Shown here: one piece after another, positions 3,395 through 28,048 of the stretch
How the letters are laid out: each line of letters begins with the position of its first letter
Position numbering within the stretch: the first letter of the stretch is position 1
DNA from: Candidatus Eiseniibacteriota bacterium
Lineage (GTDB): Bacteria; Eisenbacteria; RBG-16-71-46
Assembly (NCBI GenBank): GCA_038231135.1
Contig: JBBRLX010000043.1
Location: 1 to 28,454 of the forward strand
Direction of reading: 5' to 3'
DNA length: 28,454 bases
Notes under the pieces: model-generated
What the model was told of the DNA's origin: nothing
Database searches by the model: none
The model's input: the letters and a program-made list of their open reading frames with translations, nothing else
Program-made: the position numbers and the translations under genes

Positions 3395-4533
3395 ACATCG
3401 AACAGGTGCGCTGGCAGGCGGCCACCGGGTGGTCCCCGGGTCCGCTCGGTCAACTACGCGCGCAGCCTCAGCTCGTCCTGATGTTCGGCGGGCCGCAGGC
3501 ATTGCGGCAATCGGGGTGCATTGCGGACGTGGTCGCGGCGTATCCGAAAGCGATCCTGTTCGGTTGTTCGACCGCCGGGGAAATCTTCGACACGCACGTC
3601 ATGGACGACTCGGTCGTCGTGACGGCGATCCACTTCGAGCACACGCGGGTGCGGGCGGCGCACGCCGACATTGGCGGGGCGGCGAACAGCTATGCCGTAG
3701 GCACTCAGCTCGCGACGTCGATCGAGCACGAGGGCCTCCGGCACGTATTCGCATTGTCCGACGGGCTCGGGATCAACGGGAGCGACTTCGTGCAGGGGCT
3801 CAAGGCGTTTCTGCCGGAGAACGTCACCATCACCGGCGGACTGTCCGGAGACGGTGCGCGGTTCCAGCAGACGTACATCATTCGCGGGACGACTCACTCC
3901 TCCGGGTCGGCCGGCATCATCGGATTCTACGGCGATCGTCTGACCATCGGCTTCGGATCCCTGGGTGGCTGGGATCCGTTTGGACCCGAGCGGCTGATCA
4001 CGAAGTCGCAGGGCAACGTGCTCTACGAGCTGGATGGGAAATCGGCCCTCGCCCTGTACAAGGAGTACCTGGGGCCGCATGCCGCGGGCCTGCCGGCCAC
4101 GGGACTGCTGTTTCCGCTGAGCATTCGCGGCGCCCAGAGTGAAGACCCCGTGGTGCGCACGATCCTGTCCGTCGACGAGTCCCGGCAGAGCATGACGTTC
4201 GCCGGAGACATTCCGGTCGGCGCCTACGCCCGTCTGATGAAGGCGAACTTCGATCGGCTGGTCGACGGCGCGACGGTGGCGGCGCGCACGTGCGCCACGG
4301 CCATGGGGCCCTCGACGGCGGAGCTGGCGATCCTCATCAGTTGCGTGGGGCGGAAGCTCGTGCTCCAGCAGCGGATCGAGGAGGAGGTGGAAGCCGTTCG
4401 CGACGTCCTGGGCGCGGGCGCCGTTCTCACGGGCTTCTATTCCTACGGCGAGATCTCCCCGTTCACACCGACCGCGCGTTGCGAGCTTCACAACCAGACC
4501 ATGACGATCACGACGTTCGCGGAAGCGGCATAG
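3391..4533 (+). CDS. FIST-domain (NosP-like) sensory protein
   Basis: ATGA overlap with the upstream gene; GCSTAGEI, GGLSGD, ISCVGR, GFYSYGEI and ELHNQTM motifs of FIST_N/FIST_C. Confidence 0.92.
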   Translation: MNIEQVRWQAATGWSPGPLGQLRAQPQLVLMFGGPQALRQSGCIADVVAAYPKAILFGCSTAGEIFDTHVMDDSVVVTAIHFEHTRVRAAHADIGGAANSYAVGTQLATSIEHEGLRHVFALSDGLGINGSDFVQGLKAFLPENVTITGGLSGDGARFQQTYIIRGTTHSSGSAGIIGFYGDRLTIGFGSLGGWDPFGPERLITKSQGNVLYELDGKSALALYKEYLGPHAAGLPATGLLFPLSIRGAQSEDPVVRTILSVDESRQSMTFAGDIPVGAYARLMKANFDRLVDGATVAARTCATAMGPSTAELAILISCVGRKLVLQQRIEEEVEAVRDVLGAGAVLTGFYSYGEISPFTPTARCELHNQTMTITTFAEAA

Positions 4534-4535
4534 GC

Positions 4536-6632
4536 GTGCCGCAGCGCCATACACTGCTGCAGCGGCAGATTCGATCCAGTTTCGCCGAACCCCCGGCCCC
4601 CTCGGCGGAGTGGACCGCATTCACGACCGCGGTCGGGACTGCCTATCGCCAGTTCGACGCGGACCACGCGCTGCTCGACCGCGCCATGGAATTGAGTTCC
4701 CGAGAGTTGCTCGAGGCAAACTCGGACATTCGCGGAGTCGTACAGGCGTTTCCGGACCTGTTTCTGTGGCTGACACGGGACGGGACGATCACCGCATGCC
4801 GCGGCCAGGCGTGCAAGGATTTGGTGCTCCCGGTGGATGATCTCATCGGCAAGCGAATTCACCAGGGGCCCGATCCCACGGCCAACGCTCAGCTGGAATC
4901 GGCGCTGGACACTGTGAATGCCGGTTCCAGGCTGGTCACGGTCGAATACCCGCTGACCATCGACGGCTGCGAGCGGTACTTCGAGGCGCGGCTGCTGCCG
5001 CTACTCGAAGGGCGGATCCTGGCGATCGTCCGGGACGTGACCGGGCGGAAGGCGAACGAGCAAGCGCTGGCTCGCATGGTCGCGACGCTCCAGGCGACGC
5101 TCGAGTCGACGACGGATGGCATCCTCGTCGTCGATGCGCACGGCAAACTGGTCAGCTTCAATCGCCGACTCGTGCAGTTGTTGCACATTCCGGAAGACGT
5201 CATGGAAAGACGGAGTTCTGACAACAACGCCATCGTCGACTACGTGGTCGGCCAGCTCGTGGACCCGGAGATGTATCAGGCGAGGATTCGTGAAGTCTAC
5301 GCCGACCCGAAGGCGGAGAGCTTCGACGAGATCGTCTTCATCGATGGCCGGATATTCGAACGCTATTCGAAGCCGCAGATCCTGAACGACTGCGGCATCG
5401 GCCGGGTATGGAGCTACCGTGATGTCACCGGGCCCCGGCAGGCGGAGGCCGCGCTCCGCAGGAGTGAGGAGCAGTTGCGGCAGGCCCAGAAGATGGAGGC
5501 CATCGGACGACTGGCCGGCGGGGTCGCACACGACTTCAACAACGTGCTGACGGCGATCATCGGGTTCGGCGAACTGGTGCTCGCGGGGATGCCGCCGAAG
5601 GATCCGCTCCGCACCAAAGTGCAATACATGACGACGGCGGCGAGCCGCGGATCGGAGCTCACCCAGCAACTGCTCGCCTTCAGCCGCCATCAGGTGATCG
5701 CGGCGAATGCCGTCGACATCTCGACCATCATCGCCAACCATGCGCCGATGATGCAGCGACTGATCGGGGGAACCATCGAACTCGTCCAGCGGACCCACCC
5801 TGGCACCGGCCTCGTGAGCGTCGATCCCGTGAAGATCGAACAGATTCTGCTCAACCTGGCGATCAACGCCCGCGACGCGATGCCCGGAGGCGGCCGGCTC
5901 GTGATCGAGACCGCCAACGTGGTGCTGGATGAACACTACGTGACAGTCAATCCCGGAGCCGTTGCCGGCAACTACGTGATGCTGGCGGTCTCGGATTCCG
6001 GGAGCGGCATGACTCGTGAAGTGCAGAGCAAGGTGTTCGAGCCGTTCTTCACGACGAAAGAGGTCGGCAAGGGGACGGGCCTGGGGCTGTCCACGGTGTT
6101 CGGCATCGTGAAACAGGTGGGTGGCCACATCGGACTGTACAGCGAGCCTGGCAGCGGCACGGTGTTCAAGGTGTACCTGCCGCTGGCGAGCGCTGCCGCG
6201 GCGGCCGACACAGCGAACCCACCGGAGTCCGCGCCACCGCGCGGCGGCGAACGCATCCTGCTCGTGGAGGACGACGACGCGGTTCGTTTGCTGGCCCGGG
6301 AGGTGCTGACCCAGGGGGGCTACGCGCTGGTGGAAGCGTCCAACGGAATCGATGCGCTGGCGCTGGCGGAACGGCACCAGGGCTTCGACCTGGTGGTGAG
6401 CGACGTGATCATGCCGGCGTGCGGAGGCCGGGGGCTCTCGGAAGAGCTCCGCTTGAAATGGCCGGATATCCGGATCCTGTTCATGTCGGGCTTTACCGAC
6501 GGGGCCATCATTGATAACGGCGTCCTGAACGAAGGGGTGCCGTTCATTCAGAAGCCGTTCCGGCCGGATGCGCTCCTGCGGAAGGTACGAGAGGTACTGG
6601 ACGCTCCCGTCCGGGGTGCCCGGGCAGCCTGA
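4536..6632 (+). CDS. PAS-PAS hybrid histidine kinase with C-terminal receiver
   Basis: Probable GTG start 2 bp after the FIST stop; N-terminal HTLLQRQIR; two PAS-like regions; H-box AHDFNNVL, N-box NLAINARDAM, G-boxes DSGSGM and GKGTGLGL; receiver VSDVIMP. Confidence 0.93.
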   Translation: MPQRHTLLQRQIRSSFAEPPAPSAEWTAFTTAVGTAYRQFDADHALLDRAMELSSRELLEANSDIRGVVQAFPDLFLWLTRDGTITACRGQACKDLVLPVDDLIGKRIHQGPDPTANAQLESALDTVNAGSRLVTVEYPLTIDGCERYFEARLLPLLEGRILAIVRDVTGRKANEQALARMVATLQATLESTTDGILVVDAHGKLVSFNRRLVQLLHIPEDVMERRSSDNNAIVDYVVGQLVDPEMYQARIREVYADPKAESFDEIVFIDGRIFERYSKPQILNDCGIGRVWSYRDVTGPRQAEAALRRSEEQLRQAQKMEAIGRLAGGVAHDFNNVLTAIIGFGELVLAGMPPKDPLRTKVQYMTTAASRGSELTQQLLAFSRHQVIAANAVDISTIIANHAPMMQRLIGGTIELVQRTHPGTGLVSVDPVKIEQILLNLAINARDAMPGGGRLVIETANVVLDEHYVTVNPGAVAGNYVMLAVSDSGSGMTREVQSKVFEPFFTTKEVGKGTGLGLSTVFGIVKQVGGHIGLYSEPGSGTVFKVYLPLASAAAAADTANPPESAPPRGGERILLVEDDDAVRLLAREVLTQGGYALVEASNGIDALALAERHQGFDLVVSDVIMPACGGRGLSEELRLKWPDIRILFMSGFTDGAIIDNGVLNEGVPFIQKPFRPDALLRKVREVLDAPVRGARAA

Positions 6633-8463: not shown

Positions 8464-9441
8464 TCAGCGGGCGATCAGCAGGCTCTCGGCGAACGGCCAC
8501 TCGTCGTCCACCCACTGGCCGGCGCAGCTGAATCCCGTCCGCGTCGCGATCGCGCGCGGCTCCTCGATCGAATACTTGTGCGAGCTCTCGGTCCAGATAC
8601 TCTCCATGGCCCGCAGCGGCACCTCGATGCCGAGCGCCGCGATCGCCACGGTTTGAGCGCGCTGCGATACCAGATGCATCTCCACGCGTCGCTCGGCGGC
8701 GTCCCAGCGAACGCGGTGCCGGAATTTGGAGAGGTCGAACGTGGCGCCGAGCTCGCGATTCAGGTGGGCGAGCAGGTTGAGGTTGAACGACGCCGTGATG
8801 CCGAGCGTGTCGTCGTAAGCCGCGAGCAGCGTGGCCACCGGCTTCAGCAGGTCGGTGCCGAGCAGCAGCCCGTCCCCGGGAGCCAGCTCCGCCCGCACGG
8901 CGGCGAGGAACTGCTCGGCTTCCGGGCGATCGAAATTGCCGATCGTGCTGCCGAGGAACAACACCAGCAACGGGGTGCCCGCGGGGCGGTGAGCGGCCGC
9001 CATCGCGAGCCCGCGCAGGTAGTCGCCGGCGATCGCCTGCACGCGCACCCGGGGCACGTCCGCCAGGTCGCGGGCGCAGTGCAGCAGCGCCGCGCGCGAA
9101 ATGTCGATCGGGACGTAGGTGTGGGGCGCGCCGGGCGGGAGCGCCTCGAGCACCGCGCGCGTCTTGCGGCCGCTGCCGCTGCCGAGCTCCGCCACCACGC
9201 GCGTGCCCGGGATCGCCGCGACGATCGCCGGCGCGTGGCTCCACAGGATGCGCTCATCGGCGCGCGTCAGGCCGTATTCGGGCAACAGGCTGATCGCCTC
9301 GAACAGCGCCGAGCCGAGATCGTCGTAGAGCAGGCTCGAGGGCAGCCGCTTCTGGGTTGGATGCTCGAGGCCCGCCCGCACCTGGCTCGCCAGTTCCGCG
9401 GCGGGGCTGGCGGTCGGACGCTGTGAAGGGGCGGTGCTCAC
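8464..9441 (-). CDS. egtD: L-histidine N-alpha-trimethyltransferase
   Basis: LYDDLGSALFEAI..LPEY, ELGSGSGRKT (SAM binding), GSTIGNF, AYDD, FNLN, VEMHL, WTESSHKY; adjacent to egtB. Confidence 0.93.
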   Translation of the reverse strand: MSTAPSQRPTASPAAELASQVRAGLEHPTQKRLPSSLLYDDLGSALFEAISLLPEYGLTRADERILWSHAPAIVAAIPGTRVVAELGSGSGRKTRAVLEALPPGAPHTYVPIDISRAALLHCARDLADVPRVRVQAIAGDYLRGLAMAAAHRPAGTPLLVLFLGSTIGNFDRPEAEQFLAAVRAELAPGDGLLLGTDLLKPVATLLAAYDDTLGITASFNLNLLAHLNRELGATFDLSKFRHRVRWDAAERRVEMHLVSQRAQTVAIAALGIEVPLRAMESIWTESSHKYSIEEPRAIATRTGFSCAGQWVDDEWPFAESLLIAR

Positions 9442-9496
9442 GCGGCGGCCGGCCTGGTCATCGCGCGCGCCGGCCGCGGAGTTCCGAACGTCGCGC

Positions 9497-10816
9497 TCAC
9501 GCGGTCACCAGCCGGAACGTGGCGTAGAGGTATGGATAGTGCGGCTGGAACCAGTTACGGAACGAGCGTCTGAGGAAGCACGCCGCGGTGCGCGGCGAGC
9601 CGCCCTTGAGCACGAAATGATCGCCGTCGAAGAAATTGGCGGAGTAGCCGGCGTAGAGCGGGTGAGGCTCGAAGCCGTCGAATGGCGCGAACGCGGTGCG
9701 CGTCCATTCCCAGCCGTTTCCGACCAGCTCGGATACGCCGAACGCGCTGTCACCGGCGGGAAACGCGCCCACCGCCGACGGCTCCCAGTGACGGAAGTCG
9801 AAATTGCCGTGCCGCGCCTCAGGCGCCGCGTCCCCCCATGGATACTCGCGCTCGCCGTCCGCCAGCGTGCCGTACGCGGCACGGTGGAACTGTTCCTCGG
9901 TCGGCAGCTTGCCGCCGGCCCAGCGCGCGTAGGCACTCGCCTCGGCCTGGCTCACGTAGACCGGGGCATCGAGGGGTAGCGGCAGCGCGCCGAACATGCC
10001 GCGGAACTCCCAGCCGGAACCGCGCGGGGTCCAGAATCCGGGATGAGTGCGCTCCTCGCGTTCCTTCCAGTTCCAGTCGGATTCGCTCCATAGCGCGCGG
10101 TTCCCGTAGCCCCTGTCCGCCACGAACTCGAGGAACTGCGCGTTCGTGACCTTGTTCGCGCCGATCGTGAACCCCGGCACGGCCACCGTGTGCGCGTCGA
10201 ATTCGTTGTCCCAGCCGAAGCCGCGGCGCCGGTCGCGCCCCAGCGTCGCCGTGCCCGCGGGGATCGCGGCCGTGTCGCGCCCGGCGCTGCCTGTCTGGGG
10301 CGCGGGCGCGTAGGAGGCCGGCGCGCGCTTGCCGTCGAACGGCACGTGGTGCAGCAGATAGGCCAGCGTCTCCGCGTGCATCAGCCGATGCTCGATCGCC
10401 ATGTTGAAGATCGTCGCGGCGTCGAACCCCGGCGCGATCGAACGCGCGCCGCTCACGCATTCGTCGACGATCTCGCGCACGCGCGCGTTGTAGGCGTCGA
10501 TGTCCTCGCGTCGCGGCCAGTCGGAGGCCGGCTCGTTCGGCAGGCCGCCGTCGACGGGATCGATGCCGAACGCGAACAGCTTGTCGAACTCGGCGCGGAA
10601 CGGTTCGACGCCGTGCGACTGCCGTGCGATCAGGTTCCAGTCGAACGCCTCGACGTGGCCGAGATAGAACACCAGGCGATGGCGCTCGGGGATCGGCCGC
10701 GAGTACAGCGCCTCGGGGGTCAGCAATCCGAACAGCTCGTCGGTCCAGCCGCGAGCCACTCCCAGGCGTCCGGCCAGAATCCTGCGGTCGTCGGTCATCA
10801 GCAGCGAGTCCGTCAT
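9497..10816 (-). CDS. egtB: Non-heme iron sulfoxide synthase for ergothioneine biosynthesis (DinB + FGE-sulfatase domains)
   Basis: FYLGH and EHRLMHAE iron-ligand histidines; FGWDNE, LPTEEQF, GNGWEW, KGGS, FRNWF; GGAGGA ribosome-binding site; upstream of egtD. Confidence 0.88.
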   Translation of the reverse strand: MTDSLLMTDDRRILAGRLGVARGWTDELFGLLTPEALYSRPIPERHRLVFYLGHVEAFDWNLIARQSHGVEPFRAEFDKLFAFGIDPVDGGLPNEPASDWPRREDIDAYNARVREIVDECVSGARSIAPGFDAATIFNMAIEHRLMHAETLAYLLHHVPFDGKRAPASYAPAPQTGSAGRDTAAIPAGTATLGRDRRRGFGWDNEFDAHTVAVPGFTIGANKVTNAQFLEFVADRGYGNRALWSESDWNWKEREERTHPGFWTPRGSGWEFRGMFGALPLPLDAPVYVSQAEASAYARWAGGKLPTEEQFHRAAYGTLADGEREYPWGDAAPEARHGNFDFRHWEPSAVGAFPAGDSAFGVSELVGNGWEWTRTAFAPFDGFEPHPLYAGYSANFFDGDHFVLKGGSPRTAACFLRRSFRNWFQPHYPYLYATFRLVTA

Positions 10817-10879
10817 GAGATCCTCCGGGTCCGTCGGGCCTTGGATGGCAGACTGTCGAGCGAGTTGCTGATTTTGAGC

Positions 10880-12436
10880 CTAATCGCGGGCTGCGGGCAA
10901 GCGCAGACCGCGCGGCACGATCCGGCGTTCGATGACATCAAACCCGCCCTGGACGAGCAGCGCCAGCACGGCGGCCGGGATCGCGCCCTGCAGGATGAGC
11001 GAATTCTGCCGCAACTGGATGCCCGACAGGATCGGCTCCCCAAGCCCGCCCGCCCCGATCAGCGCGGCCAGCGTGGCGGTGCCGACATTAATGACGGCGC
11101 TGGTCTTGATGCCGGCGAGGATCGCGGGCGACGCCATGGGCAGCCGCACCCGCATCAGGCGGGCGCGGGGCGGGAGCCCGATCGCCGCCGCCGCCTCGGC
11201 CAGCGGCGCCGGGATCGATTGCAGGCCCACGCAGGTGTTGCGCACGATCGGCAGCAGGCTATAGAGGAACAGGGCCACCAGCGCAGGCGCGGCGCCGATG
11301 CCGAGCACCGGGATCAGCACCGCGAGCAACGCGAGCGATGGAATGGTCTGGAGCAGGCCGGTTCCCGTCAGGATGATTCCCGACAGCCACGGCAGGTCGG
11401 CGGCGAGGATGCCGAGCGGGACGCCGAACACGATCGCCGCGGCGAGCGACAGCGCGACCAGCTCCAGATGCTCGGCGGTGTGACGCAGGATGCTGGCGGC
11501 GACGCTGGGTTCGGCGTCGTCGCCCCGTGCCGTGCCGCCGCCCGCGCCGGTTCCGGCGATGCCGGCGCCGGCCGCCGCCCGTCCTGCGTGAATCTCGGTG
11601 AGCAGCGACTCGGCCGACGCGACGTAGCCCTGCTTCGCCAGCACCACGCGCGCGTTCGCGCGGATCATGCGCGGCTCGTCGATCACGCCGGTCAGCGCCG
11701 CGATCGCCGCCAGCGCCCGCGGTTCCCGCCGCGCCAGGTCGAGGCGGTAGAGCCAGACCGCGTCGTAGCGCGGGAAGAATCCCCGATCGTCCTCGAGCAG
11801 GCGCAGTCCGAGCTGCGCGATCTGGGCGTCGGTGGTGTAGATGTCGGTGCCGTCGATCGCGCCGCTCGCGAGCGCGCCCCACGCCAGCTCGTGCTGGAGG
11901 CCGCGCACGTCGCGCATCGCGAGGCCGTAGCGCCGGGCGAGACCGGGGTAGCCGTCCGGGCGGCCGAGGAATTCGTGGGTGAGGCCGAGCCGCACCCCGC
12001 GATGCTTCGCCAGGTCCGACAGCGTGCGCAGCGAGTCCCTGGCGGCGACCGGGCCGGTCACCGCGAGCGCATACCCGTCGTTGAAGCCGATGGGATCGCT
12101 GATGCCGAGTCCGTGCGTCGCCAGCCTCGAGCGCAGCTCGGGGATCGTCAGCGGCTGCTGGCTGTGGAGGATCACCTCCTGGATCGTCCCGGTATATTCG
12201 GCATACACGTCGATGCTGCCGGATTCGAGCCCGGCATACACGATCTCGGTGCCGCCGAGATTGCTGTGATGCACCACGTCGGGGATCCCGTGCAGGCGCA
12301 ACTCGATCGTCAGCGCCTCGCCCAGCACCCAGGACTCCGGGAACGCCTTCGAGCCCACGGTGACGCGCGCGGCGGCCGGCGCCGCGGGCGCCAGCAGCAG
12401 CAGCGTGAGTGCGCACCACACGAGTCCGCGGTTCAT
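10880..12436 (-). CDS. Betaine-family ABC transporter, fused substrate-binding domain and permease
   Basis: Signal peptide; GSKAFPES, YAEYTGT, EFLGRPDG, YTTD, FFPRY (OpuAC/OsmF-type binding domain); permease motifs QTIPSLALL, EAAAAIGL, GAGGLG. Confidence 0.92.
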   Translation of the reverse strand: MNRGLVWCALTLLLLAPAAPAAARVTVGSKAFPESWVLGEALTIELRLHGIPDVVHHSNLGGTEIVYAGLESGSIDVYAEYTGTIQEVILHSQQPLTIPELRSRLATHGLGISDPIGFNDGYALAVTGPVAARDSLRTLSDLAKHRGVRLGLTHEFLGRPDGYPGLARRYGLAMRDVRGLQHELAWGALASGAIDGTDIYTTDAQIAQLGLRLLEDDRGFFPRYDAVWLYRLDLARREPRALAAIAALTGVIDEPRMIRANARVVLAKQGYVASAESLLTEIHAGRAAAGAGIAGTGAGGGTARGDDAEPSVAASILRHTAEHLELVALSLAAAIVFGVPLGILAADLPWLSGIILTGTGLLQTIPSLALLAVLIPVLGIGAAPALVALFLYSLLPIVRNTCVGLQSIPAPLAEAAAAIGLPPRARLMRVRLPMASPAILAGIKTSAVINVGTATLAALIGAGGLGEPILSGIQLRQNSLILQGAIPAAVLALLVQGGFDVIERRIVPRGLRLPAARD

Positions 12437-13182
12437 GCGCGCGCCGGTTCCGGGAACGCCACCGGCCGCTGCGCCTTGAGGAACGCGGTCACGAACGGAT
12501 CCGCCGGCCGGGTGGCGAGATCGGCGAACGTGCCGCGCTGGACGATGCGCCCGGCTCGCAGCAGCGCGATCTCGTCGCCGACGATGGCCGCCTCGGACAC
12601 GTCGTGCGTGACGAACAGCACGGTCTTCTTCAGCCGCTCGAACGCCTGGCGCAGGTCGCGCTGCAGGTCGGCGCGGATCATGGGGTCGAGCGCCCCGAGT
12701 GGCTCGTCCATCAGCAGCACCTCGGGGTCGAGCATCAGCGCGCGCATCAGCCCCACGCGCTGGCGCTGGCCGCCGCTGAGCTGCGACGGGTAGCGCTCGA
12801 GGAGCTGGGCCGGGATCCGGACGAACTCCAGCAGCTCGCGCAGGCGGGCGGCGATGCGCGCGCGGTCCCAGCCCAGCTCCTGCGCCACCAGCGCCACGTT
12901 GTCCGCGGCGGTGAGGTGCGGGAACAGGCCGCCCTCCTGGATCACGTAGCCCATGCGCAGCCGCAGCGCGCCGCGCGTCGTGGGGGTGAGCGGCGTGCCC
13001 ACCACCGAGATCGTGCCCGCGTCCGGGACCAGCAGTCCCACCACCAGCCGCAGCAGCGTGCTCTTGCCGCAGCCGCTCGGACCGAGCAGCACCAGCGTGG
13101 TGCTCGCGCCGACGTTCAGGTGATCCACGTCGAGCGCGAGCGTGCCGTCGAAGCTCTTGCGCAGCCCCACCACCTCGATCAT
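12433..13182 (-). CDS. ABC transporter ATP-binding subunit (OpuA/ProV-like, no CBS domains)
   Basis: Walker A GPSGCGKS, signature LSGGQ, Walker B LLMDEP, VTHD; 4-bp overlap with the permease gene; start placed at MIEVVGL. Confidence 0.93.
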   Translation of the reverse strand: MIEVVGLRKSFDGTLALDVDHLNVGASTTLVLLGPSGCGKSTLLRLVVGLLVPDAGTISVVGTPLTPTTRGALRLRMGYVIQEGGLFPHLTAADNVALVAQELGWDRARIAARLRELLEFVRIPAQLLERYPSQLSGGQRQRVGLMRALMLDPEVLLMDEPLGALDPMIRADLQRDLRQAFERLKKTVLFVTHDVSEAAIVGDEIALLRAGRIVQRGTFADLATRPADPFVTAFLKAQRPVAFPEPARA

Positions 13183-13350
13183 CGGGCGAGGGTACCAGAC
13201 GGCGCGCCGCACGGTGAGCCGTGAGGCGTCGTGCGGTCGGCGCGCATCACGCGGCGCCGCGGAGCGCAGCCCTGAGGATCGTACTGCCGCCGCCGGTCGT
13301 GCTAATGTGCGCCGCTCGAGCGCGGAACGGATTCCAACACGGGAGCTGCC

Positions 13351-16662: not shown

Positions 16663-17670
16663 TCAGCGCTTCATCATCATCTCGATCTGCCACAGGTCGC
16701 GCCGGCTGGCGCGTATGAATGGCAGGATCGCGATCCAGCCGGTGGGGCCGATCGCCTTCTGGAGATAGGTCATCTCGGCGAAATTCGCGGCGACGTCGCG
16801 GTCGATCGGCACGTCGAGCCCGGCCTGGCGGGCGAGCAGCATGCCCTTGGCCCGCAGCGCGAGCTCGAGCCGGATCTGCAGCAGGCACAGCATGTCGCCC
16901 ACCACCGGGCCCGGGAACCGGCTCTTGAGCGACTCGAGGTAGTGGCCCACGCGCGTGTCCGAGATCGCGCCCGAGTGGATCAACTCGAGCAACTCGACAT
17001 CGGCGTCGAGACCGACGCCCAGCCAGTTCTGCGTGGCGCGCTCGCTGCGTTCGAACACCAGAAACAGCAGCAGCGGCATCGTCACGAACAGCAGCGCCAC
17101 GCCCACCAGCGGGCTCGCGCTCAGCGCGTTGTACGCGGCGTGAACGGCGATCGCGATCGCCAGGCCGGGCAGGGCGCCGGCGAGGCCGTGCGTCTCGCTG
17201 TGGTCGGCGAGGTTCTTGGTGACGATCCCCACGATCGCGGTCGCGCCGCCGTGCATGACTGCGGTCCCGAGTCCGCGCACCAGCCACAGCACCGGATCGG
17301 GATCGGCGAGCGCGTGCGCATAGTAGAGATTCTCGACCAGCGCGAACCCGGCGCCGACGGTGAAGCCCTGGATGCCGGCATCCACCATGAACCCCACGCG
17401 GTCGAGCCGGATCAGCACGATCACGTAGAGCGCCTTCAGCGACTCCTCGATCACCGGCGCGAGGTAGCGTTGGAGCACGAACGGGCTCACGTGCCCGGGG
17501 CCGAGCAGCGACACGTTGATCGTGAACGCCAGCCCCGCGGCGATGGCGCCGGCGCCGATCGCACGCAGCACGGCGGGCCGCGCCACGAGCTTGTAGCTGT
17601 CCATCAGCATCAGACCTGCGAGGAACAGCAGCACCGGCAGCAGGCCGGCCAGAAGGGCGACGGGATTCAC
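16663..17670 (-). CDS. prsW: PrsW-family (M82) intramembrane metalloprotease with C-terminal extension
   Basis: GTG start (VNPVALL) 10 bp after the upstream stop; APVIEESLKA (EExxK), GAGFALVEN (FxxxE), MHGG, VHAAYN (HxxxN). Confidence 0.88.
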   Translation of the reverse strand: MNPVALLAGLLPVLLFLAGLMLMDSYKLVARPAVLRAIGAGAIAAGLAFTINVSLLGPGHVSPFVLQRYLAPVIEESLKALYVIVLIRLDRVGFMVDAGIQGFTVGAGFALVENLYYAHALADPDPVLWLVRGLGTAVMHGGATAIVGIVTKNLADHSETHGLAGALPGLAIAIAVHAAYNALSASPLVGVALLFVTMPLLLFLVFERSERATQNWLGVGLDADVELLELIHSGAISDTRVGHYLESLKSRFPGPVVGDMLCLLQIRLELALRAKGMLLARQAGLDVPIDRDVAANFAEMTYLQKAIGPTGWIAILPFIRASRRDLWQIEMMMKR

Positions 17671-17680
17671 GCGGCGCCCG

Positions 17681-20662
17681 TCACAGCAGCTTGAGCGACA
17701 CCATCCACTCGTCGCCGAGGTGGCGGGCGCGCTGCCATGCGCGCGCGTAGCCAAACGACAGCGTGAGCGGCTGGAGCGTGAGCAACTGGAAGCGCAGATC
17801 GGCCTGCGCCCCCAGGTCCTGGTAGCGCCCGCGGGTATCGGCGTGCTGCGGATCGGTGAGGAGCCCGGCGCCGAACAGCGACAGGCGGGCGTTTGTCGCG
17901 TAGAACGCGAGCGTGCCCGCGCGGCGGAATCGCAGCGCCGGCAGGTCGAGTTCGGCGAGCGCCCGCGCGAAGCGGGTGCCCGCGATCGCGTCGATCGCGA
18001 CGCCGGGAAAGCTGTCGTACCCGCGATAGCGATGCGGATCGCGGTGGTCGATCCAGTTGTTGCCGAAGCCGCCGAAGTATTCATACGCGAATGGCTGCGT
18101 GGCGTCGCCATACGCGTGCCCCGCCGCGGTGCGCAGCCACAGGGAACTGTTGCGCAGTGGCAGTGGCGTGCCGGCGTCGAGCGTGGCGGCGACCCGCGGG
18201 AACCCCTGCCAGGTCGAGGCTCCGCCGCGCACGAACCGCACGCCCTGGCTCTCGGCCTCGAGCGTGCCCTGCCAGCCCAGCTCGTAGTCGACGGCCCCGA
18301 TCGACGCGCGCAGGTTCTTGTAGGCGAACTCGGCCGTCGCGACCGCCAGCTTGTCGAACCCGGGCGTGGTGGACACGTTCTGGGCGTCGGGCAGCCGGTC
18401 GAGGCCGCCGTAGCCGTCGAGGCCCACGGAAACATGCAGGGACCGCGGCGCGTCCTCGCGCAGCATGCGCTGCCACGTGACGCCGGCGTCGTAGCCCTTG
18501 CGGCTCGATTTCGTGGGCCCGACGAGGTCGTAGAACGAGGCGCCATTGTAACGATAGCGCGCCGAGAGGCTGGCGTGCTGGCCGTCGAGCGCGAGATGGA
18601 TGCGCTCGGTGCCGCGGCTGCCCGGCGTGTACGACACGGTGGCGGAGCCGCCATAGATGGAGACCGGGTCCGAGAAGTTCATGCGCACCCCGACCGCGGT
18701 CTGCTGCTTGTAGCCCTCGACGACCGGATACGCGGTGGTCATGCGCACCTGCGGCAGCGGGCGGTAGCGCCCGGCGAACGTCTGCAGCGAATCGAGCCGG
18801 ATGCGCGACGGCGGCGGCACCCGCCAGGTCTCGAGCACGGGATGCGACTCGACCAGCTCCCGGCCCAGGAACGTGATCGCGCTCACGTCGGTGAGCGGAT
18901 GCGCCTCGATGACCGCGGGCACGAACCCCCGGCCGGAGTAGCGGAACACGATCAGCGAATCGCCCGAGCCCGGCAGCGGCCGGAACAATCCGGTCTCGCA
19001 GTTGCTCACAACGTCCATGGAATCGGCTGCGAAGTCGTAGCGGAAGATGTTCGATACGCCGGTGTAGTAGCTGCTGCCATAGAGCTGCCGGCCGTCGGGC
19101 GTGAACACGAAGCTGGTGGGGATCGCGGTGCCGAAATCGTGGAGCGTGGTCGAGCTGGTGTCGCCGGCTGCGAGGGCCGCGAGCTTCATCGAGCGCAGCG
19201 TCTGCCGGCCGCTGATCTCGGCGACCGAGCCCACCAGCGTCGTGCCGTCGGGGGAGATGTCGAGATCGTAGAGATCACGCCCGTAGGGGAGTGTCATCAC
19301 CTGGTGGAAATCGGTCCATGGCGGCGGCATGGTCACCAGCGTCGAGAACCCATTGAAATGGCGCACGCCCCACAATGACCGGTCGGCGGGATTGAACGCC
19401 AGGTCGCCGATGCGGGCGTTGCGGATCAGCCGCCGCGAGCGGCCGGTCCTGGGGTCGAGCACGTTGAGTCCCCGCCAGCCGGTGTTGTCGCTGGTGAAGA
19501 ACAGCGTGTCGCTCCCGGGGTCGTGGGCGAGCGACGTCACGAAGTAGAGTGCCGGGCCCTTCACCTCGGTGAGCCGGCGCACGCGGCCGCTGGCGAGCGA
19601 GATCGCCGCAATGTGCGCCACGGCGCCCGGGTAGTCGACGCCCACGTACAACTCGTGCCCGTCGCGGCTCCGGTAGGCGCGCGACACCGAGCCCAGCGCC
19701 GTCTTCGACAGGTCGCGGTACGGCGTCACCGGGTAGCGCCGGATCGAGTCGAGGTTCGCGCGCTGGAACCCGTGCTCCCACGCGATCCAGTCGCTCCATG
19801 CCCGGTCGAGCGACGTGCCAAACACCTGTCGGAACCGGGATGCGAAGTACGCTCGATCGCCGGGGGCGCGCCCGACCCACCGGAGCAGGTGTTCGGGCGA
19901 ATGGACCTGGGCCAGGTAGCTCATGAACCGGGTGCCGTAGAGATAGGAATTCACTCCCACCTGGAAGTCGACCTTGGTGCCCTGCGACTCGAGTCCCAGG
20001 GGATCGTAGATGCGCGTCGAATCCCGCACCATCGCACGGAACACCATCTCGTCGTACGGCCCCTGTGCGCGGCCGAGGCCGCCCGCCATCCAGGTCTCCA
20101 TGAACACCGCGATGCCCTCGTGGTACCAGCGCGGCGCCGCGCGGCGCGGCAGCGTGAGGTAGTCGTAGAGCATCGTTACCGGCTGGTCCGCGGTCTCGCG
20201 CACCTTGCCGTGGAACAGCGTGCGGAACCACCGGTCGGAGCCGGCCGTCTGGTCGAGCGCCACCACGTGCACCACCTCGTGGTTCATCGTGAAGTTCATG
20301 CGTTCGTTGGACGGGCCGGTTTCGTAGACGAAGTTGGACGGCGCGATCTGCACCGACATGCTGTTGCGCGGCGCCACCCACACGCCGGCGTTCCCGTAGT
20401 CCCCCGAGTCGTCGAGGATGACGTTCACGCGCTCGGACGGCGAGTAGCCCCACAGCGCCTTGTGGAACCGCAGGGAGTTCTCGAAGCACCGCGCGGTGTA
20501 ATCGGTGAGGAACTCCATCGACCGCCCGGGATAGATCAACCGCATGTCCCGGGTCTCGAGCACCGAGAACTGGGCGCGGACCGGCGCCGGGCCGAGCAGC
20601 AGCAGGACGAGCGCCGGGAGCACGGCGAACGACCTGCGCACGCGACGACGGGCTGGTTTCAA
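17681..20662 (-). CDS. Outer-membrane protein: gluzincin/MA-clan peptidase domain, beta-propeller and C-terminal beta-barrel
   Basis: Signal peptide ending VRA-Q; HEVVH plus PRWYHEGIA zinc motif; TolB-like SPDG/TPDG repeats; alternating aromatic beta strands at the C-terminus. Start uncertain: TTG 20662 with GAGGG upstream; alternatives 20641 or 20722. Confidence 0.75.
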   Translation of the reverse strand: MKPARRRVRRSFAVLPALVLLLLGPAPVRAQFSVLETRDMRLIYPGRSMEFLTDYTARCFENSLRFHKALWGYSPSERVNVILDDSGDYGNAGVWVAPRNSMSVQIAPSNFVYETGPSNERMNFTMNHEVVHVVALDQTAGSDRWFRTLFHGKVRETADQPVTMLYDYLTLPRRAAPRWYHEGIAVFMETWMAGGLGRAQGPYDEMVFRAMVRDSTRIYDPLGLESQGTKVDFQVGVNSYLYGTRFMSYLAQVHSPEHLLRWVGRAPGDRAYFASRFRQVFGTSLDRAWSDWIAWEHGFQRANLDSIRRYPVTPYRDLSKTALGSVSRAYRSRDGHELYVGVDYPGAVAHIAAISLASGRVRRLTEVKGPALYFVTSLAHDPGSDTLFFTSDNTGWRGLNVLDPRTGRSRRLIRNARIGDLAFNPADRSLWGVRHFNGFSTLVTMPPPWTDFHQVMTLPYGRDLYDLDISPDGTTLVGSVAEISGRQTLRSMKLAALAAGDTSSTTLHDFGTAIPTSFVFTPDGRQLYGSSYYTGVSNIFRYDFAADSMDVVSNCETGLFRPLPGSGDSLIVFRYSGRGFVPAVIEAHPLTDVSAITFLGRELVESHPVLETWRVPPPSRIRLDSLQTFAGRYRPLPQVRMTTAYPVVEGYKQQTAVGVRMNFSDPVSIYGGSATVSYTPGSRGTERIHLALDGQHASLSARYRYNGASFYDLVGPTKSSRKGYDAGVTWQRMLREDAPRSLHVSVGLDGYGGLDRLPDAQNVSTTPGFDKLAVATAEFAYKNLRASIGAVDYELGWQGTLEAESQGVRFVRGGASTWQGFPRVAATLDAGTPLPLRNSSLWLRTAAGHAYGDATQPFAYEYFGGFGNNWIDHRDPHRYRGYDSFPGVAIDAIAGTRFARALAELDLPALRFRRAGTLAFYATNARLSLFGAGLLTDPQHADTRGRYQDLGAQADLRFQLLTLQPLTLSFGYARAWQRARHLGDEWMVSLKLL

Positions 20663-20688
20663 GCGGCGGCCCTCGAGGAGGGGAACGC

Positions 20689-20720
20689 GGAAATCCCGCG
20701 CGATGCCGCGCGGGGTTTCC
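20689..20720 (-). terminator. Stem-loop after the repeat-protein gene (partial terminator or mRNA stabiliser)
   Basis: GGAAACCCCGCGCG-GCAT-CGCGCGGGATTTCC: a 14-bp stem with one mismatch, 18 bp after the stop codon. Confidence 0.5.
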
Positions 20721-20738
20721 AACGACGGTACGAAGATG

Positions 20739-21761
20739 TCAGTGCGTTTCGAGTGTGCGCGCGGCCAGTTCCGACTGGCTTGCGAGCTTGCTGAATTCGG
20801 GCGCCGAGACCAGTTTCTGGAAATCCGCCTGGGTGATGAGCTTGTTGAACTCGGGAATCGCCACCACCTTCGCCAGGTCCGGGTCGATCGCGAGTTTCGC
20901 GAATTCCGGGCTCGACGCCAGCTTCGAGAATTCCGTGGTCGCCGCGACCTTGAACAGGCCGGCGTCGATCGAGTGCTGGAATTCCGGCGTGGTCACGAGC
21001 TTGCCGAACTCGGGCTGCGCCGCCAGCTTCTGGAACTCGGCGCTGGTCACCAGCTGGTTGAATTCCGTGACCGTCTTGATCTTGTTGAACTCGGTGACGG
21101 TCTTGATCTTGTTGAACTCGGTGACGGTCTTCACCTTGTTGAACTCGGTGACCGTCTTGATCCTGTTGAATTCCGTGACGGTCTTGATCCTGTTGAACTC
21201 GGTGACCGTCTTCACCTTGTTGAGCGACGCGTCCGTCATCATCGCCGCGAATTCCGGTGTCGTCACCAGCTTCGCGAATTCGGGATCCTTCACGATGCGT
21301 GACAGCGCATCCTGATCAGCCGTGCTCAGCTTGCCGAACTCGGGTGTTGCCGCGATCTTCCAGAACTCGCTGCTCGACGCCATGTGCGCGAACTCGGGCT
21401 GCGCGATCAGCTTGTGAAACTCCGTGACGGTCGAGAGCTTCTGGAATTCCGGCTGTGTCACCATGCGGCCGAATTCAGGATTCTTCGCGAGCTTGCTGAA
21501 TTCGGGGCTCGTCACGAGCTTCCGGAACTCCGCATTCGTCTGCATCTTGTGGAACACGTCGGTCTGGAGGAACGCCTGGGTGTCGGCGTCCTTGATCGCC
21601 ACGTCGTTGTCGGTGATCTGGTTCGCCTGATAGCGATTCGCGGCGCCGATGGTGCCCTCGGTCCCCACGGGCGCCGGCGCCTTACCCTTGAGCAGCAGGT
21701 ATCCGCAGCCCACCGCCGCGACGACGGCGACTGCAACGAGGATGCCCTTGTTGTTCGCCAT
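20739..21761 (-). CDS. Membrane-anchored protein of about 30 tandem 9-aa repeats (xPEFxKLxx), function unknown
   Basis: AAGGAG ribosome-binding site; N-terminal hydrophobic helix; about 40-aa unique region; then repeats such as SPEFSKLAK, QPEFQKLST and VTEFNKIKT to the C-terminus. Confidence 0.9.
   Translation of the reverse strand: MANNKGILVAVAVVAAVGCGYLLLKGKAPAPVGTEGTIGAANRYQANQITDNDVAIKDADTQAFLQTDVFHKMQTNAEFRKLVTSPEFSKLAKNPEFGRMVTQPEFQKLSTVTEFHKLIAQPEFAHMASSSEFWKIAATPEFGKLSTADQDALSRIVKDPEFAKLVTTPEFAAMMTDASLNKVKTVTEFNRIKTVTEFNRIKTVTEFNKVKTVTEFNKIKTVTEFNKIKTVTEFNQLVTSAEFQKLAAQPEFGKLVTTPEFQHSIDAGLFKVAATTEFSKLASSPEFAKLAIDPDLAKVVAIPEFNKLITQADFQKLVSAPEFSKLASQSELAARTLETH
21057..21218. repeat. 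Six tandem 27-bp coding repeats
   Basis: Units such as GTTGAACTCGGTGACGGTCTTGATCTT start at 21057, 21084, 21111, 21138, 21165 and 21192; they encode [K/R][I/V]KTVTEFN. Confidence 0.95.
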
Positions 21762-21818
21762 GGGGATCTCCTTGGTTCATTCGGCCCACGCGCCGGATCT
21801 CCGGCGCTCACGGTAGCC

Positions 21819-21844
21819 ATACACGACATCGTGAAATTCGTTGG
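21819..21844 (-). promoter_or_regulatory. Candidate ECF sigma promoter of the repeat-protein gene
   Basis: CCAAC-N14-CGTGTAT, matching the motif upstream of the sigma gene; AAC and CGT are typical ECF -35/-10 cores. Confidence 0.6.
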
Positions 21845-21866
21845 TGGAAGTCTTGCGGCCGCCCCG

Positions 21867-22649
21867 TCAGGGATGGTCTCCCGGGATCGGGACCTCCTGT
21901 TCGCGGTCCTGCCCCAGCGACCGCAACGTGAAGTGCAGCAGCGGAGACCCGGCGCCGGCGCCATGAATCCTGAGCGAATAGCGCAGGTCGCCCGAGAACG
22001 TGATCGTGATCGAGCCAGGCTCGAGCGCGGCGTGCGCGGGGGCGGGGACGATGCCGCCGATCGCGGTCAGCGTCCGCTGGGGATCGTGATCGAGCACCAG
22101 CGTGGCGCCGTCGGTGGATCGGGCGTCGATGCGCGCCTCCACCGTGTCGCCGATCCGGCGCAACTCCACCCGGGCGTGTGCGGTGGCCGCGTCGAGCACG
22201 ACGACCGCCGCGGGTGCGCCGCCGAGCGGCGCCAGCGTGCCCGACACGGTGAGGTTCGAGGGGCCGCCGCGGCCGGTGGCGAGGGACCACACGAGGATGC
22301 CCGCGGCGCAGCCGGTCGCGAACGTGGCAGCCAGGCGGATCGCGAGCTTGCGGTCGAGCCAGCCCGCGAAGCGGCGGTCGAGCCGTGCGGCAGGGCGGCG
22401 GTCGAGCCCCGCGGTAAGCCGCACTGCCCCTTCGGACTGGATGCTGCGCATGATGTTCCGCTTGAGGTCGCCGGGCGGCGGGAGCGGCCGCGCGGCGCGC
22501 AACGCCCGCACCGCGGTCTCCAGCGAGTCCCATTCCTCGCGCGCCTTGGCGTCGGTCGCGACGCGGGCCGCCAGCTCCGCGCGCTCGGCCGGGCTGGCCT
22601 CGCCGTCGAGCACCGCGTGCGCCAGTTCCGCGAACGAGGGGCGGGTCAT
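21867..22649 (-). CDS. Single-pass membrane anti-sigma factor (ZAS-like N-terminus without zinc ligands)
   Basis: ATGA overlap with the ECF sigma gene; AVLDGEASPAERAELAARV anti-sigma-domain pattern; one TM helix; beta-rich periplasmic domain. Confidence 0.8.
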   Translation of the reverse strand: MTRPSFAELAHAVLDGEASPAERAELAARVATDAKAREEWDSLETAVRALRAARPLPPPGDLKRNIMRSIQSEGAVRLTAGLDRRPAARLDRRFAGWLDRKLAIRLAATFATGCAAGILVWSLATGRGGPSNLTVSGTLAPLGGAPAAVVVLDAATAHARVELRRIGDTVEARIDARSTDGATLVLDHDPQRTLTAIGGIVPAPAHAALEPGSITITFSGDLRYSLRIHGAGAGSPLLHFTLRSLGQDREQEVPIPGDHP

Positions 22650-23191
22650 GATGCCGTCACCCCGCGGCGGCGCAACGCCTCGCCCAGCAGCTGGCGGGCG
22701 CTGAACAGCCGCGATTTCACCGTCTTCTCGGGAATCCCCGCCACGTCGGCAATCTCCGCGTACGACAGCTCCTGGAAGTGTCGCAGCACGATCACCTGCC
22801 GGTACTCCGCGCTCAATGTCATCAGCGCCTCCTGTAGGTGATCGCCGAGTTCGATGCGTTCGAGCGTGTCCGCCGGACCCGGAACGCCGTCCGGAATGCC
22901 GTCGTCGAGCTCGTCGTGCCGCCTGCGCCGCTGCACGAAATTCAGCGACTCGTTGATCGTGATGCGGTAGATCCAGCTGTAGAACCGGTGCGCCGGATCA
23001 TAGCTCGCGAGATTCCGCCACACCTTGAGGAACACGGTCTGGGTCAGATCGCGGGCGTCGTCCGGGCTGCCGGTCATCCGCCAGGCCAGGTTGTAGAGCA
23101 CGCCCTGGTATTCGTCGACGAGTGCTTCGAATGCGCGTTCGTCGCCCCGCTGCGCGCGGTGGATCAAAGCGAGCTCCGGGTTCTCCGACAT
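22646..23191 (-). CDS. ECF RNA polymerase sigma-70 factor
   Basis: GDERAFEALV, DARDLTQTVF, FYSWIYRITIN (region 2); LSYAEIA..GIPEKTVKSRLFSAR (region 4). Confidence 0.95.
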   Translation of the reverse strand: MSENPELALIHRAQRGDERAFEALVDEYQGVLYNLAWRMTGSPDDARDLTQTVFLKVWRNLASYDPAHRFYSWIYRITINESLNFVQRRRRHDELDDGIPDGVPGPADTLERIELGDHLQEALMTLSAEYRQVIVLRHFQELSYAEIADVAGIPEKTVKSRLFSARQLLGEALRRRGVTAS

Positions 23192-23193
23192 CA

Positions 23194-23220
23194 ATACACG
23201 CGCTCCCGGGGAAAAGTTGG
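23194..23220 (-). promoter_or_regulatory. Candidate autoregulatory ECF promoter, leaderless
   Basis: CCAAC-N15-CGTGTAT ending 2 nt before the ATG at 23191; no Shine-Dalgarno sequence. Confidence 0.6.
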
Positions 23221-23237
23221 CGGACGGTTGGCGGCAG

Positions 23238-23522
23238 TTATTCGATGGTCAGCAGGCGGTCGAGCCCGGCGTAGGCGAACACGTTGCGGACCCGGGGCTG
23301 GAGCCCGACCAGCTTGAACGCGTGGCCCGCGGCGTGCAGACGCTTGTAGGTCTCGATGAGCACGCCGATTCCGGCGCTCGAGATGTATTCCAGCCCGGAC
23401 ATGTCGACCGTGACCGGCTCCAGCAGCGGGCGGAGCGCCGCCTGCGCCCGCTCGGCCTCCGCCGCGTCGAGCCGTCCCGCCAGTTTCACGCGTCCCGCCT
23501 CGCCGATCTGAATGTCGAGCAT
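23238..23522 (-). CDS. STAS-domain anti-anti-sigma factor (RsbV/SpoIIAA-like)
   Basis: LAGRLDA; DMSGLEYISSAGIG containing the phospho-acceptor Ser; VRNVF..GL; TGATG overlap with the upstream gene. Confidence 0.9.
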   Translation of the reverse strand: MLDIQIGEAGRVKLAGRLDAAEAERAQAALRPLLEPVTVDMSGLEYISSAGIGVLIETYKRLHAAGHAFKLVGLQPRVRNVFAYAGLDRLLTIE

Positions 23523-23929
23523 CAGGGGCCGATCCTCTTGGTGACGGTGATGGTGCTGACCCGATCCACGTACTCGTAGCGCACGTCGTCGGCGATCCGT
23601 TTCACGAGGTGAATCCCGAGGCCCCCCGGCCGCCGCGCGTCCAGCGGCGCCGTGGTGTCGACCGGTCGGGCCTGGGTGAGATCGAATCCTTCGACGTCGA
23701 AATCCTTGAGGACCAGCGTCACCGCTACCGGGTCGGCCTCGAGTGCCACGAGGATCTCATGCCGGCCGTCACGCCCGTATTTCACGAGATTGGTGAACAG
23801 CTCCTCGACGATCACGTCGAGGTCGTAGGTGAGCCCGGGGTCGAGTCCGCGGTCCGCGACGAACTGGTGGACGAAGGCGAAGATCGCGTCCAACGACCCC
23901 ACGGCCCGGGGGAATCGACGTTCCGGCAT
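23522..23929 (-). CDS. RsbW/SpoIIAB-like anti-sigma Ser kinase (HATPase_c_2)
   Basis: VEELFTNLVKYG (N-box), GGLGIHLVKRIADDVRY; start placed at MPERRF. Confidence 0.88.
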   Translation of the reverse strand: MPERRFPRAVGSLDAIFAFVHQFVADRGLDPGLTYDLDVIVEELFTNLVKYGRDGRHEILVALEADPVAVTLVLKDFDVEGFDLTQARPVDTTAPLDARRPGGLGIHLVKRIADDVRYEYVDRVSTITVTKRIGP

Positions 23930-27972: not shown

Positions 27973-28048
27973 GGGGCTGTAGCTCAGTTGGGAGAGCGCC
28001 TGACTGGCAGTCAGGAGGTCGACGGTTCGATCCCGTTCAGCTCCACCA
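27973..28048 (+). tRNA. tRNA-Ala (anticodon GGC)
   Basis: 76 nt, GGGGCTG...CAGCTCCACCA; G3:U70 identity pair; anticodon arm CCTGA-CTGGCAG-TCAGG; GGTTCGATCC T-arm. Confidence 0.98.

Follow-up and report, generated by a model that had tools for sequence, protein, structure and literature searches.

The 28,454-nt contig JBBRLX010000043.1 of a Candidatus Eiseniibacteriota bacterium (assembly GCA_038231135.1), hereafter termed the window, is an entire contig of a 4.09-Mb genome. On its minus strand, between positions 16663 and 23929, it carries a cassette of seven genes, encoding an RsbW-like kinase, a STAS protein, an extracytoplasmic function (ECF) sigma factor, an anti-sigma factor, a repeat protein, an outer-membrane (OM) protein and a PrsW-family protease. 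This cassette is real, widespread and apparently undescribed, a form of protease-controlled ECF signalling assembled from known parts. The reading favoured herein, at a little under an even chance, is that all seven genes form one circuit, of which the repeat protein would be the output: the anti-sigma factor and the repeat protein would each be cut by PrsW at a motif common to the two, the OM barrel would export or trim the latter, and the kinase/STAS switch would gate PrsW.

The tightly packed, co-oriented arrangement with two overlapping pairs that the original prediction had described is confirmed in its coordinates, overlaps and gaps. Overlaps of 1 nt (RsbW/STAS) and 4 nt (sigma/anti-sigma) are accompanied by gaps of 43–46, 105, 16 (76 if a later OM start is used) and 10 nt. 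Each gene except that for sigma is single-copy in a search of the 4.09-Mb genome, and neither a sigma-70 promoter nor a terminator was found in the cassette region. Pfam provides names for the kinase, STAS protein, ECF sigma factor and PrsW, and no credible family for the repeat and OM proteins; with NCBIfam, the STAS protein and sigma factor pass the cut-offs of superfamily models only.

Conservation and modular loss of the cassette

Conservation was assessed by a PrsW-seeded scan covering the best 80 of 493 relatives, from which the 43 loci that have 7.1 kb or more of upstream sequence were counted, and by an OM-seeded metagenome scan, covering the best 80 of 585, as the reverse control. Hidden Markov model matches within the 43 loci number 42 for STAS, 41 for OM, 40 each for RsbW and the repeat protein, 38 for sigma, 36 for anti-sigma and 21 for a GAF-PP2C gene, with three of the misses being artefacts, owing to a frameshift in one anti-sigma domain, the shortness of another and N-masking of a repeat gene. 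According to the record titles of the best 80, the hosts comprise Eisenbacteria, beta- and gammaproteobacteria, Bacteroidota, Ignavibacteria, Balneolota, KSB1, Calditrichota, Krumholzibacteria, Acidobacteriota and Gemmatimonadota. The cassette is kept in about ten phyla, and because of the synteny across the 43 PrsW-seeded loci a chance arrangement is excluded, which bears out the earlier proposal of a conserved, self-contained system. No cultured carrier occurs among the named records of the best 80, all of which are metagenome-assembled genomes, and the plasmid collection returned no PrsW match. Oligoendopeptidase F and a HerA-like ATPase, which flank the cassette, lie outside the system because they are present in only 2 and 1 of the 43 loci, respectively.

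Across 151 genomes of the phylum the cassette is nearly all-or-none: PrsW is found in 64, OM in 60, STAS in 59 and the repeat protein in 55, and just 2 of the 87 genomes lacking PrsW possess any other part, in both cases at a contig end. PrsW is present in 9 of 40 relatives, 7 of which have the OM gene directly upstream; the other two have RsbW-STAS-sigma-anti-sigma-PrsW only, with OM not found in either genome. A second, fragmented prsW copy (L015:16648–17199) occurs approximately 4 kb downstream of the intact copy in genome G014.

Natural deletions divide the cassette into modules, of which the repeat and OM genes form an inseparable one, the former being directly upstream of the latter in all 49 OM-seeded loci with room. 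PrsW follows directly downstream of OM in 40 of 46 such loci. Six loci without sigma and anti-sigma genes (L027, L064, L072, L085, L210 and L211) retain STAS along with the repeat gene, as well as OM and PrsW if the contig extends that far. No close sigma was detected elsewhere in the four sigma-less genomes tested (best identity 40 %), and no repeat-gene promoter was found in the three sigma-less loci scored. A further four loci without repeat and OM genes (L013, L018, L052 and L209) keep RsbW-STAS-sigma-anti-sigma-PrsW. The intersection of the two deletion classes is PrsW plus STAS; STAS is also the most constant neighbour of PrsW in the 43 loci, and adjoins it in the rearranged loci L083, L141 and L142. 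Locus L171 contains sigma, repeat and OM genes, and RsbW, STAS, PrsW and the promoter motif described below were not found within 8 kb on either side.

The partner switch and PrsW

Because PrsW and STAS form the module intersection, we infer that the RsbW/STAS switch acts on PrsW, and this co-retention makes it likely that PrsW, rather than sigma, is what the switch gates. The kinase (23522..23929, minus strand as for all cassette features, 135 aa) is RsbW/SpoIIAB-like (Pfam HATPase_c_2, E 9e-20), and falls below the NCBIfam equivalog cut-offs for both RsbW and SpoIIAB. Its stand-alone STAS partner (23238..23522, 94 aa; STAS_2, E 4e-18) harbours a YISS phospho-acceptor motif, in which Y46, S48 and S49 are invariant across 51 orthologues. 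A PP2C phosphatase is absent from the window locus, and eight open reading frames (ORFs) with PP2C domains reside elsewhere in the genome, none of them assigned to this switch. In the betaproteobacterial loci L044, L046, L057, L072 and L099 (at about 2800–5900), a single fusion protein of approximately 575 aa combines GAF, PP2C and RsbW-like kinase domains.

The PrsW-family intramembrane protease (16663..17670, 335 aa) matches PF13367 (E 1e-19) across residues 38–207 only, and does not reach the PrsW equivalog cut-off (23.6 versus 225 bits). Residues E75–E76, H140 and H177 are invariant in 51/51 orthologues, so that the first of two protease motifs originally reported as intact is upheld. Beyond the Pfam domain lies a C-terminal extension of approximately 130 residues (17052–16666), many of them invariant, which is predicted from hydropathy and loop charge to be cytoplasmic. 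The EE pair would stand at the beginning of a helix, on what is predicted to be the periplasmic side, an arrangement that may suit a juxtamembrane cut. The genome additionally encodes an RseP homologue. A sequence search of the PDB with PrsW gave no significant match, and no longer or fused PrsW forms occur among 613 candidates, which is weak evidence. The complex prediction for PrsW and STAS, built from 51-row alignments, scored 0.10 and is not used as evidence.

A motif common to the anti-sigma factor and the repeat protein

The anti-sigma factor (21867..22649) is a single-pass protein as judged by hydropathy, and has a weak RseA_N match (E 9e-4), with a helix at residues 102–120, Gly-Thr-Leu at 137–139 and a variable periplasmic domain. 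Such domains are only ~16 % identical across 58 stand-alone anti-sigma factors, in which G137 is the sole invariant column (58/58), with Thr following in 46. A G[TSA][MILV] pattern lies within 22 residues past the helix in 56/58 of these proteins, compared with 50/268 background windows. In the window this element reads VSGTL (22233..22247) and is a predicted cleavage signal.

The repeat protein (20739..21761, 340 aa), whose gene is preceded by a strong ribosome-binding site, has a basic N-terminal end, a helix at residues 6–24, a Pro-rich linker, the sequence TEGTIGAANRY (21630..21662) and around 28 nine-residue repeats. The originally claimed nonad period is present, with 19 of the 23 [ED]F spacings being 9, two being 18, and one each 17 and 20. 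Within TEGTIGAANRY the G, I and A are nearly invariant (52 rows), and across 56 repeat proteins (one locus skipped) G-T-I lies at a median of 12 residues past the N-terminal helix, followed by A-x-R-Y; this stretch is a putative cleavage site and barrel-targeting signal. The N-terminal family comprises 1848 clusters (50 % identity) at E ≤ 0.001. At the level of sequence, the anti-sigma factor and the repeat protein thus have in common a Gly-Thr-hydrophobic motif, located 12–15 residues outside a membrane helix, which lends support to the original idea that PrsW might process one or both. In a profile comparison between the anti-sigma helix region and the repeat N-terminus only the motif aligned, with a probability of 6 %, and homology is therefore not claimed.

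Two other readings of the repeat protein were set aside. That of a lipoprotein was rejected as Cys is not conserved, and that of an STI1-type chaperone because relatives carry unrelated repeats; the Pfam STI1 match itself adds up over the repeats, with no single stretch that passes, and atlas searches with this protein gave only low-scoring STI1-like leads.

The outer-membrane peptidase-propeller-barrel protein

The OM protein (17681..20722) begins with a signal peptide, and its start is more likely the TTG at 20662 than the codon at 20722, because the former is the sole candidate with a clear ribosome-binding site. An AlphaFold2 model from 62 rows (pLDDT 93, pTM 0.90; an earlier model from 7 rows was unusable, at pLDDT 52.7) displays a helical HExxH domain (about 20572–19736), a six-blade propeller (about 19735–18893) and a 16-strand barrel (about 18745–17684). 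The protein can thereby be confidently modelled as a peptidase, a propeller and an Omp85-type barrel. The HExxH motif is encoded at 20281–20267, and H98, E99, H102, E152 and Y210 are invariant across 62 orthologues, so the second protease motif of the original prediction is likewise intact; these five residues presumably constitute a gluzincin active site. The propeller (residues 282–537) matches TolB with a Z score of 22.5, and the barrel matches Deinococcus BamA (8xnb; Z 19.3, root-mean-square deviation 4.6, 301 residues aligned). Fold searches with the whole model are taken up by the propeller, so that no structural match to the peptidase domain emerged from them.

Family searches with 20 OM homologues gave one weak match to Peptidase_MA_2, weak matches to Omp85_2 in 8, all below the cut-off, and none to PF00149. 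No POTRA domain is present, the model being fully covered by peptidase, propeller and barrel. A PDB sequence search was without significant match, and atlas searches gave unnamed clusters alongside PD40, Omp85 and Peptidase_MA look-alikes. A separate BamA is encoded in the genome.

The sigma factor, its promoter and a probably tiny regulon

The ECF sigma factor (22646..23191, 181 aa from the ATG at 23191, with an alternative TTG at 23194) contains Sigma70_r2 and r4_2 domains, and lies below the SigW (120 versus 209 bits) and RpoE equivalog cut-offs. Adjoining its start codon is an ECF-type promoter motif (CCAACTTT ... TGTA; 23193..23221) with a score of 29.3, the top site in the genome for the position weight matrix; the form CCAACTTT-N13-TGTA precedes 40/41 sigma orthologues. 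A weaker second copy (21818..21845) precedes the repeat gene, and sites scoring at least 12 are found before 43/61 stand-alone repeat genes, as opposed to 3/3068 control windows. The original claim that sigma drives the repeat gene is thus partly sustained: the motif stands before both the sigma and repeat genes, but the window copy at the latter is weak (12.0 versus 29.3).

The further claim that sigma drives itself is weakened. The start codon lies 6 nt past the G of the −10 GTA in 56/87 orthologues (window 23221–23186), which is upstream of the expected +1; because the +1 of ECF promoters is counted from the flipped −10 base, according to PMC7776599, transcription would be expected to begin a few bases inside the sigma ORF. 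At this place 12/87 orthologues have no in-frame ATG, GTG or TTG, and the ribosome-binding signal for sigma is weak (median −3.3). This arrangement suggests either that sigma is initiated in a non-standard way or that the +1 of the promoter is internal to the sigma ORF. With the +1 so placed, the sigma-proximal promoter may make anti-sigma factor rather than sigma. Loci with start-codon oddities are L019, L023, L025, L057, L093, L113, L114, L117, L122, L138, L144, L170 and L178.

Genome-wide, four sites score at least 20, compared with none in three shuffles, and those scoring at least 16 are not above shuffles (8 versus 4–11). The exact pattern yields 1–4 matches in ten other genomes, against 0–3 for the reversed control; in two betaproteobacterial genomes (G047 and G050) both matches lie in the cassette, being the sigma site and a site inside the fused gene described below. 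A large regulon is not supported by these counts, with sites at ≥ 16 no commoner than in shuffles and few pattern matches in other genomes, and the regulon looks to be tiny.

A number of promoter-like sites lie outside the cassette. At G000:C8:69601 (+) and L192 (G001:C114:31970, −) the motif precedes orthologous genes for secreted proteins of ~320 aa with no named family, and in G000 this gene is followed by one for a Ser/Thr kinase, making it a candidate regulon member. More such sites are seen at G000:C14:87470 (−), G000:C47:7563 (−), L196 and L207. Behind these four, as read from the sequence, are a large secreted-protein operon, a small secreted protein, a peroxiredoxin-like gene and a secreted Cys-rich protein.

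Genes that fuse the anti-sigma factor to the repeat protein

The 114 repeat genes that could be parsed comprise 38 in-frame fusions with the anti-sigma N-domain, 61 separate genes, 12 with no sigma in view and 3 that are unclassed. In the 38 fused genes the part contributed by the repeat protein replaces the helix and motif of the anti-sigma factor itself. Internal start codons appear to be retained: an ATG or GTG whose ribosome-binding energy is ≤ −5 kcal/mol precedes the helix in 37/38 fused genes (median −10.7), closely resembling the 61/61 of separate repeat genes (median −10.9), and only 19 % of 2391 control internal ATGs of OM and PrsW genes reach this value (median −2.8). Similarly, inspection by eye of 30 long forms among the top 147 representatives reveals a Met within the protein ahead of the helix, in most cases following Gly, Glu or Arg residues that fit a ribosome-binding site. 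A promoter motif scoring at least 12 occurs inside the coding sequence of 17/38 fused genes, set against the same 3/3068 control windows; in the first set examined it was present in 10/10 proteobacterial fused genes and 0/8 others. Taken from their sequences, it is likely that the fused genes each make two isoforms.

One fused class has only ~55–80 residues before the internal start, corresponding to the C-terminal half of the anti-sigma domain; its members are P0136, P0145, P0166, P0185, P0245, P0267, L089, L150, L154 and L156. In a quick PrsW tree (85 rows, unrooted, with unclassified loci left out) fused forms occur in several places, and some supported groups are mixed with split forms. 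Repeated deletion-fusion events would then have turned the intergenic region into a linker, with the caveat that the tree is unrooted.

Proposed mechanism and alternative explanations

In the circuit favoured above, the RsbW/STAS switch, joined by GAF-PP2C in many relatives, would gate PrsW from the cytoplasm, plausibly via its C-terminal extension. PrsW would then cut the anti-sigma factor and the repeat protein alike, at the Gly-Thr-hydrophobic motif that lies a short way beyond the inner membrane, with the RseP of the genome completing the anti-sigma factor's breakdown as a site-2 step. Freed sigma would transcribe the repeat gene, and probably also those for OM and PrsW. The OM protein, the obligate partner of the repeat protein, would bind the released form by the conserved new N-terminus of the latter, and would export or trim it. 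Each cleavage, the RseP step, the export and the target of STAS are thus putative. A number of precedents exist for individual steps: glutamic intramembrane proteases process tripartite sorting signals (10.1101/2023.06.07.544157), PrsW has been proposed as an export-processing peptidase (PMC3482391), and STAS proteins can be outputs with non-sigma targets (PMC8256260).

Several points weigh against this circuit. The link between STAS and PrsW comes solely from their co-retention. The repeat-gene promoter of the window is the weak one noted above, and a scoring promoter is missing from 21/38 fused and 18/61 stand-alone repeat genes. Repeats have no conserved sequence or period across relatives (4, 6, 8, 9, 10, 11 and 12 occur), and therefore no activity of the exported product is evident. 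Of the six OM-seeded loci without PrsW directly downstream of OM, two carry it next to STAS in another part of the locus, two stop shortly past OM, and two (L155 and L171) have no PrsW within 8 kb. Locus L214, which is OM-less and from a fragmented genome, contains anti-sigma-PrsW-PP2C, with STAS not found. Finally, the locus sets overlap and are related, with some near-duplicates, meaning that counts are not independent.

A more far-reaching version, which must be considered speculative and on balance unlikely, is that the cassette constitutes a new secretion route. Here, a STAS-switched PrsW would act as the release protease for an N-terminal Gly-Thr sorting signal and a dedicated peptidase-propeller-Omp85 barrel would export the repeat polymer; the same cut would activate the sigma factor that makes the cargo, with many lineages encoding anti-sigma factor and cargo in one gene by means of an internal promoter and start.

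The strongest of the other explanations, although a rather unlikely one, is the trans-envelope sensing of the original prediction, whereby the repeats form a periplasm-spanning sensor or tether held by OM, and a signal licenses PrsW to destroy the anti-sigma factor such that sigma mounts an envelope response. Consistent with this, the repeats form the periplasmic tail of the anti-sigma factor itself in 38 loci, their length is roughly kept though their sequence is not, repeat and OM genes never separate, and some genomes have extra promoter sites before secreted-protein genes, one being common to G000 and G001. However, the sigma-less loci keep repeat-OM-PrsW-STAS with no sigma to signal to, and the signalling half is kept in OM-less loci, observations that together weaken the case for OM as an upstream signal input. 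Moreover, 37/38 fused genes retain a start for a form that would be unable to bind sigma, and the regulon appears tiny, sites at ≥ 16 being no more frequent than in shuffles.

It is rather improbable that the motif is instead a signal peptidase I site of the form [VTA]-x-G|T, cut between Gly and Thr, with the repeat protein bearing an ordinary long signal peptide, the anti-sigma factor being RsiV-like and PrsW having some other substrate. The residue two before the Gly is indeed V, T or A in 44/56 repeat proteins, and RsiV is cut at an AXA site seven residues past its helix (PMC4183432). Yet it is Gly that is invariant, Ala taking its place in just 2/56 repeat proteins and 0/58 anti-sigma factors, residues past the Gly are conserved too, the motif lies 12–15 residues from the helix, and PrsW is kept with either motif-bearing protein.

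Negative feedback, in which a sigma-induced short repeat protein is a PrsW decoy, the OM peptidase destroys the released form and the proximal promoter makes anti-sigma only, would account for a short isoform with the motif and without a sigma-binding domain, for a predicted +1 inside the sigma ORF and for an intact OM active site, but is highly improbable given that a decoy is purposeless in sigma-less loci and that a 963-residue barrel protein plus hundreds of repeat residues is costly for such a role.

Comparison with known systems

The combination had originally been considered not to be a described system, and literature searches, with subscription papers mostly outside their reach, found no account of it; similarly, the accessible part of the ECF reclassification supplement (PMC7826278) lists no group with PrsW plus STAS. 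The closest counterpart is the Bacillus subtilis sigma-W/RsiW/PrsW/RasP pathway (also C. difficile CsfT and CsfU), with which the cassette has in common an ECF sigma factor, an adjacent single-pass anti-sigma factor, the PrsW EE/H/H residues and an RseP homologue. In contrast to that pathway, the hosts are diderm, the protease gene is inside the operon and its product is extended by ~130 aa, and the cassette further includes another protein with the motif, one of the Omp85 type and a partner switch. A Zn-binding His/Cys domain is a feature of RsiW, whilst the anti-sigma factor herein is without the Cys motif, having no Cys in its first 100 residues.

RsgI of B. subtilis possesses a disordered periplasmic tail, and the fused forms of the cassette have a comparable low-complexity extracytoplasmic tail. 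In the case of B. subtilis RsiV, a signal-peptidase site-1 example, the similarity lies in a conserved small-residue motif past the anti-sigma helix. Both differ in that the motif of the cassette is Gly-Thr-hydrophobic instead of AXA, and that the operon has a gene for a dedicated protease.

With regard to the switch, the HATPase_c_2 kinase, the STAS protein with a conserved Ser and the GAF-PP2C gene of 21/43 loci resemble RsbU/RsbW/RsbV, SpoIIE/SpoIIAB/SpoIIAA and the non-canonical SypA and BtrV (PMC8256260). There is, however, no SigB/SigF-type sigma factor, the neighbour being of the ECF type, and as the switch survives loss of that ECF sigma it therefore likely has a non-sigma target.

The OM protein resembles the Omp85/TpsB superfamily, WD40-Omp85 and two-partner secretion in its BamA-like 16-strand barrel, TolB-like propeller and single adjacent, dedicated partner gene. 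WD40-Omp85 and the PF00149-bearing Metallo-Omp85 are described in PMC4104836, the accessible text of which does not include a peptidase-propeller-barrel combination; relative to Metallo-Omp85, an N-terminal HExxH gluzincin domain is present instead. Unlike two-partner (type Vb) secretion systems, there is no POTRA domain, and the partner is membrane-anchored with short repeats and is not a TpsA, with no match of the repeat protein to any two-partner-type Pfam family. FecA/FecR/FecI differs as the barrel here has 16 strands and there is no Pfam match to a TonB-dependent receptor or FecR-type anti-sigma factor. Lastly, myxosortase/JDVT-CTERM sorting (10.1101/2023.06.07.544157) also pairs a dedicated glutamic protease with a short motif, helix and basic cluster; compared with MYXO-CTERM, however, the signal of the cassette is N-terminal, reversed, centred on Gly rather than Cys and common to an anti-sigma factor, and the enzyme belongs to PF13367 and not PF02517.

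Other features of the window

Near one contig end (200–1822), a tyrosine integrase gene (200–1720) ends 13 nt from a tRNA-Leu (1734–1822), a likely integration site; a tRNA-Ala is found at 27973–28048. Genes for a FIST-domain protein and then a PAS hybrid histidine kinase occupy 3247–6632 (+). The region 8464–13212 (−) encodes an ABC ATPase, a fused substrate-binding/permease protein, an EgtB/SenA/OvoA-family enzyme (below all three cut-offs) and EgtD, and is a probable ergothioneine-type synthesis and uptake cluster.

Implications

If the proposed circuit is correct, it would provide PrsW-family proteases with a defined recognition motif and a second substrate class, and an Omp85 subtype having both peptidase and propeller with a partner gene. 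It would also represent a partner switch wired to a protease instead of a sigma factor, and the fused genes, with their internal promoter and start, would be clear instances in which a single bacterial gene specifies an anti-sigma factor together with the target of that same sigma. The cassette is, in addition, common in uncultured soil and sediment bacteria, being represented in 64 of the 151 genomes of this phylum.

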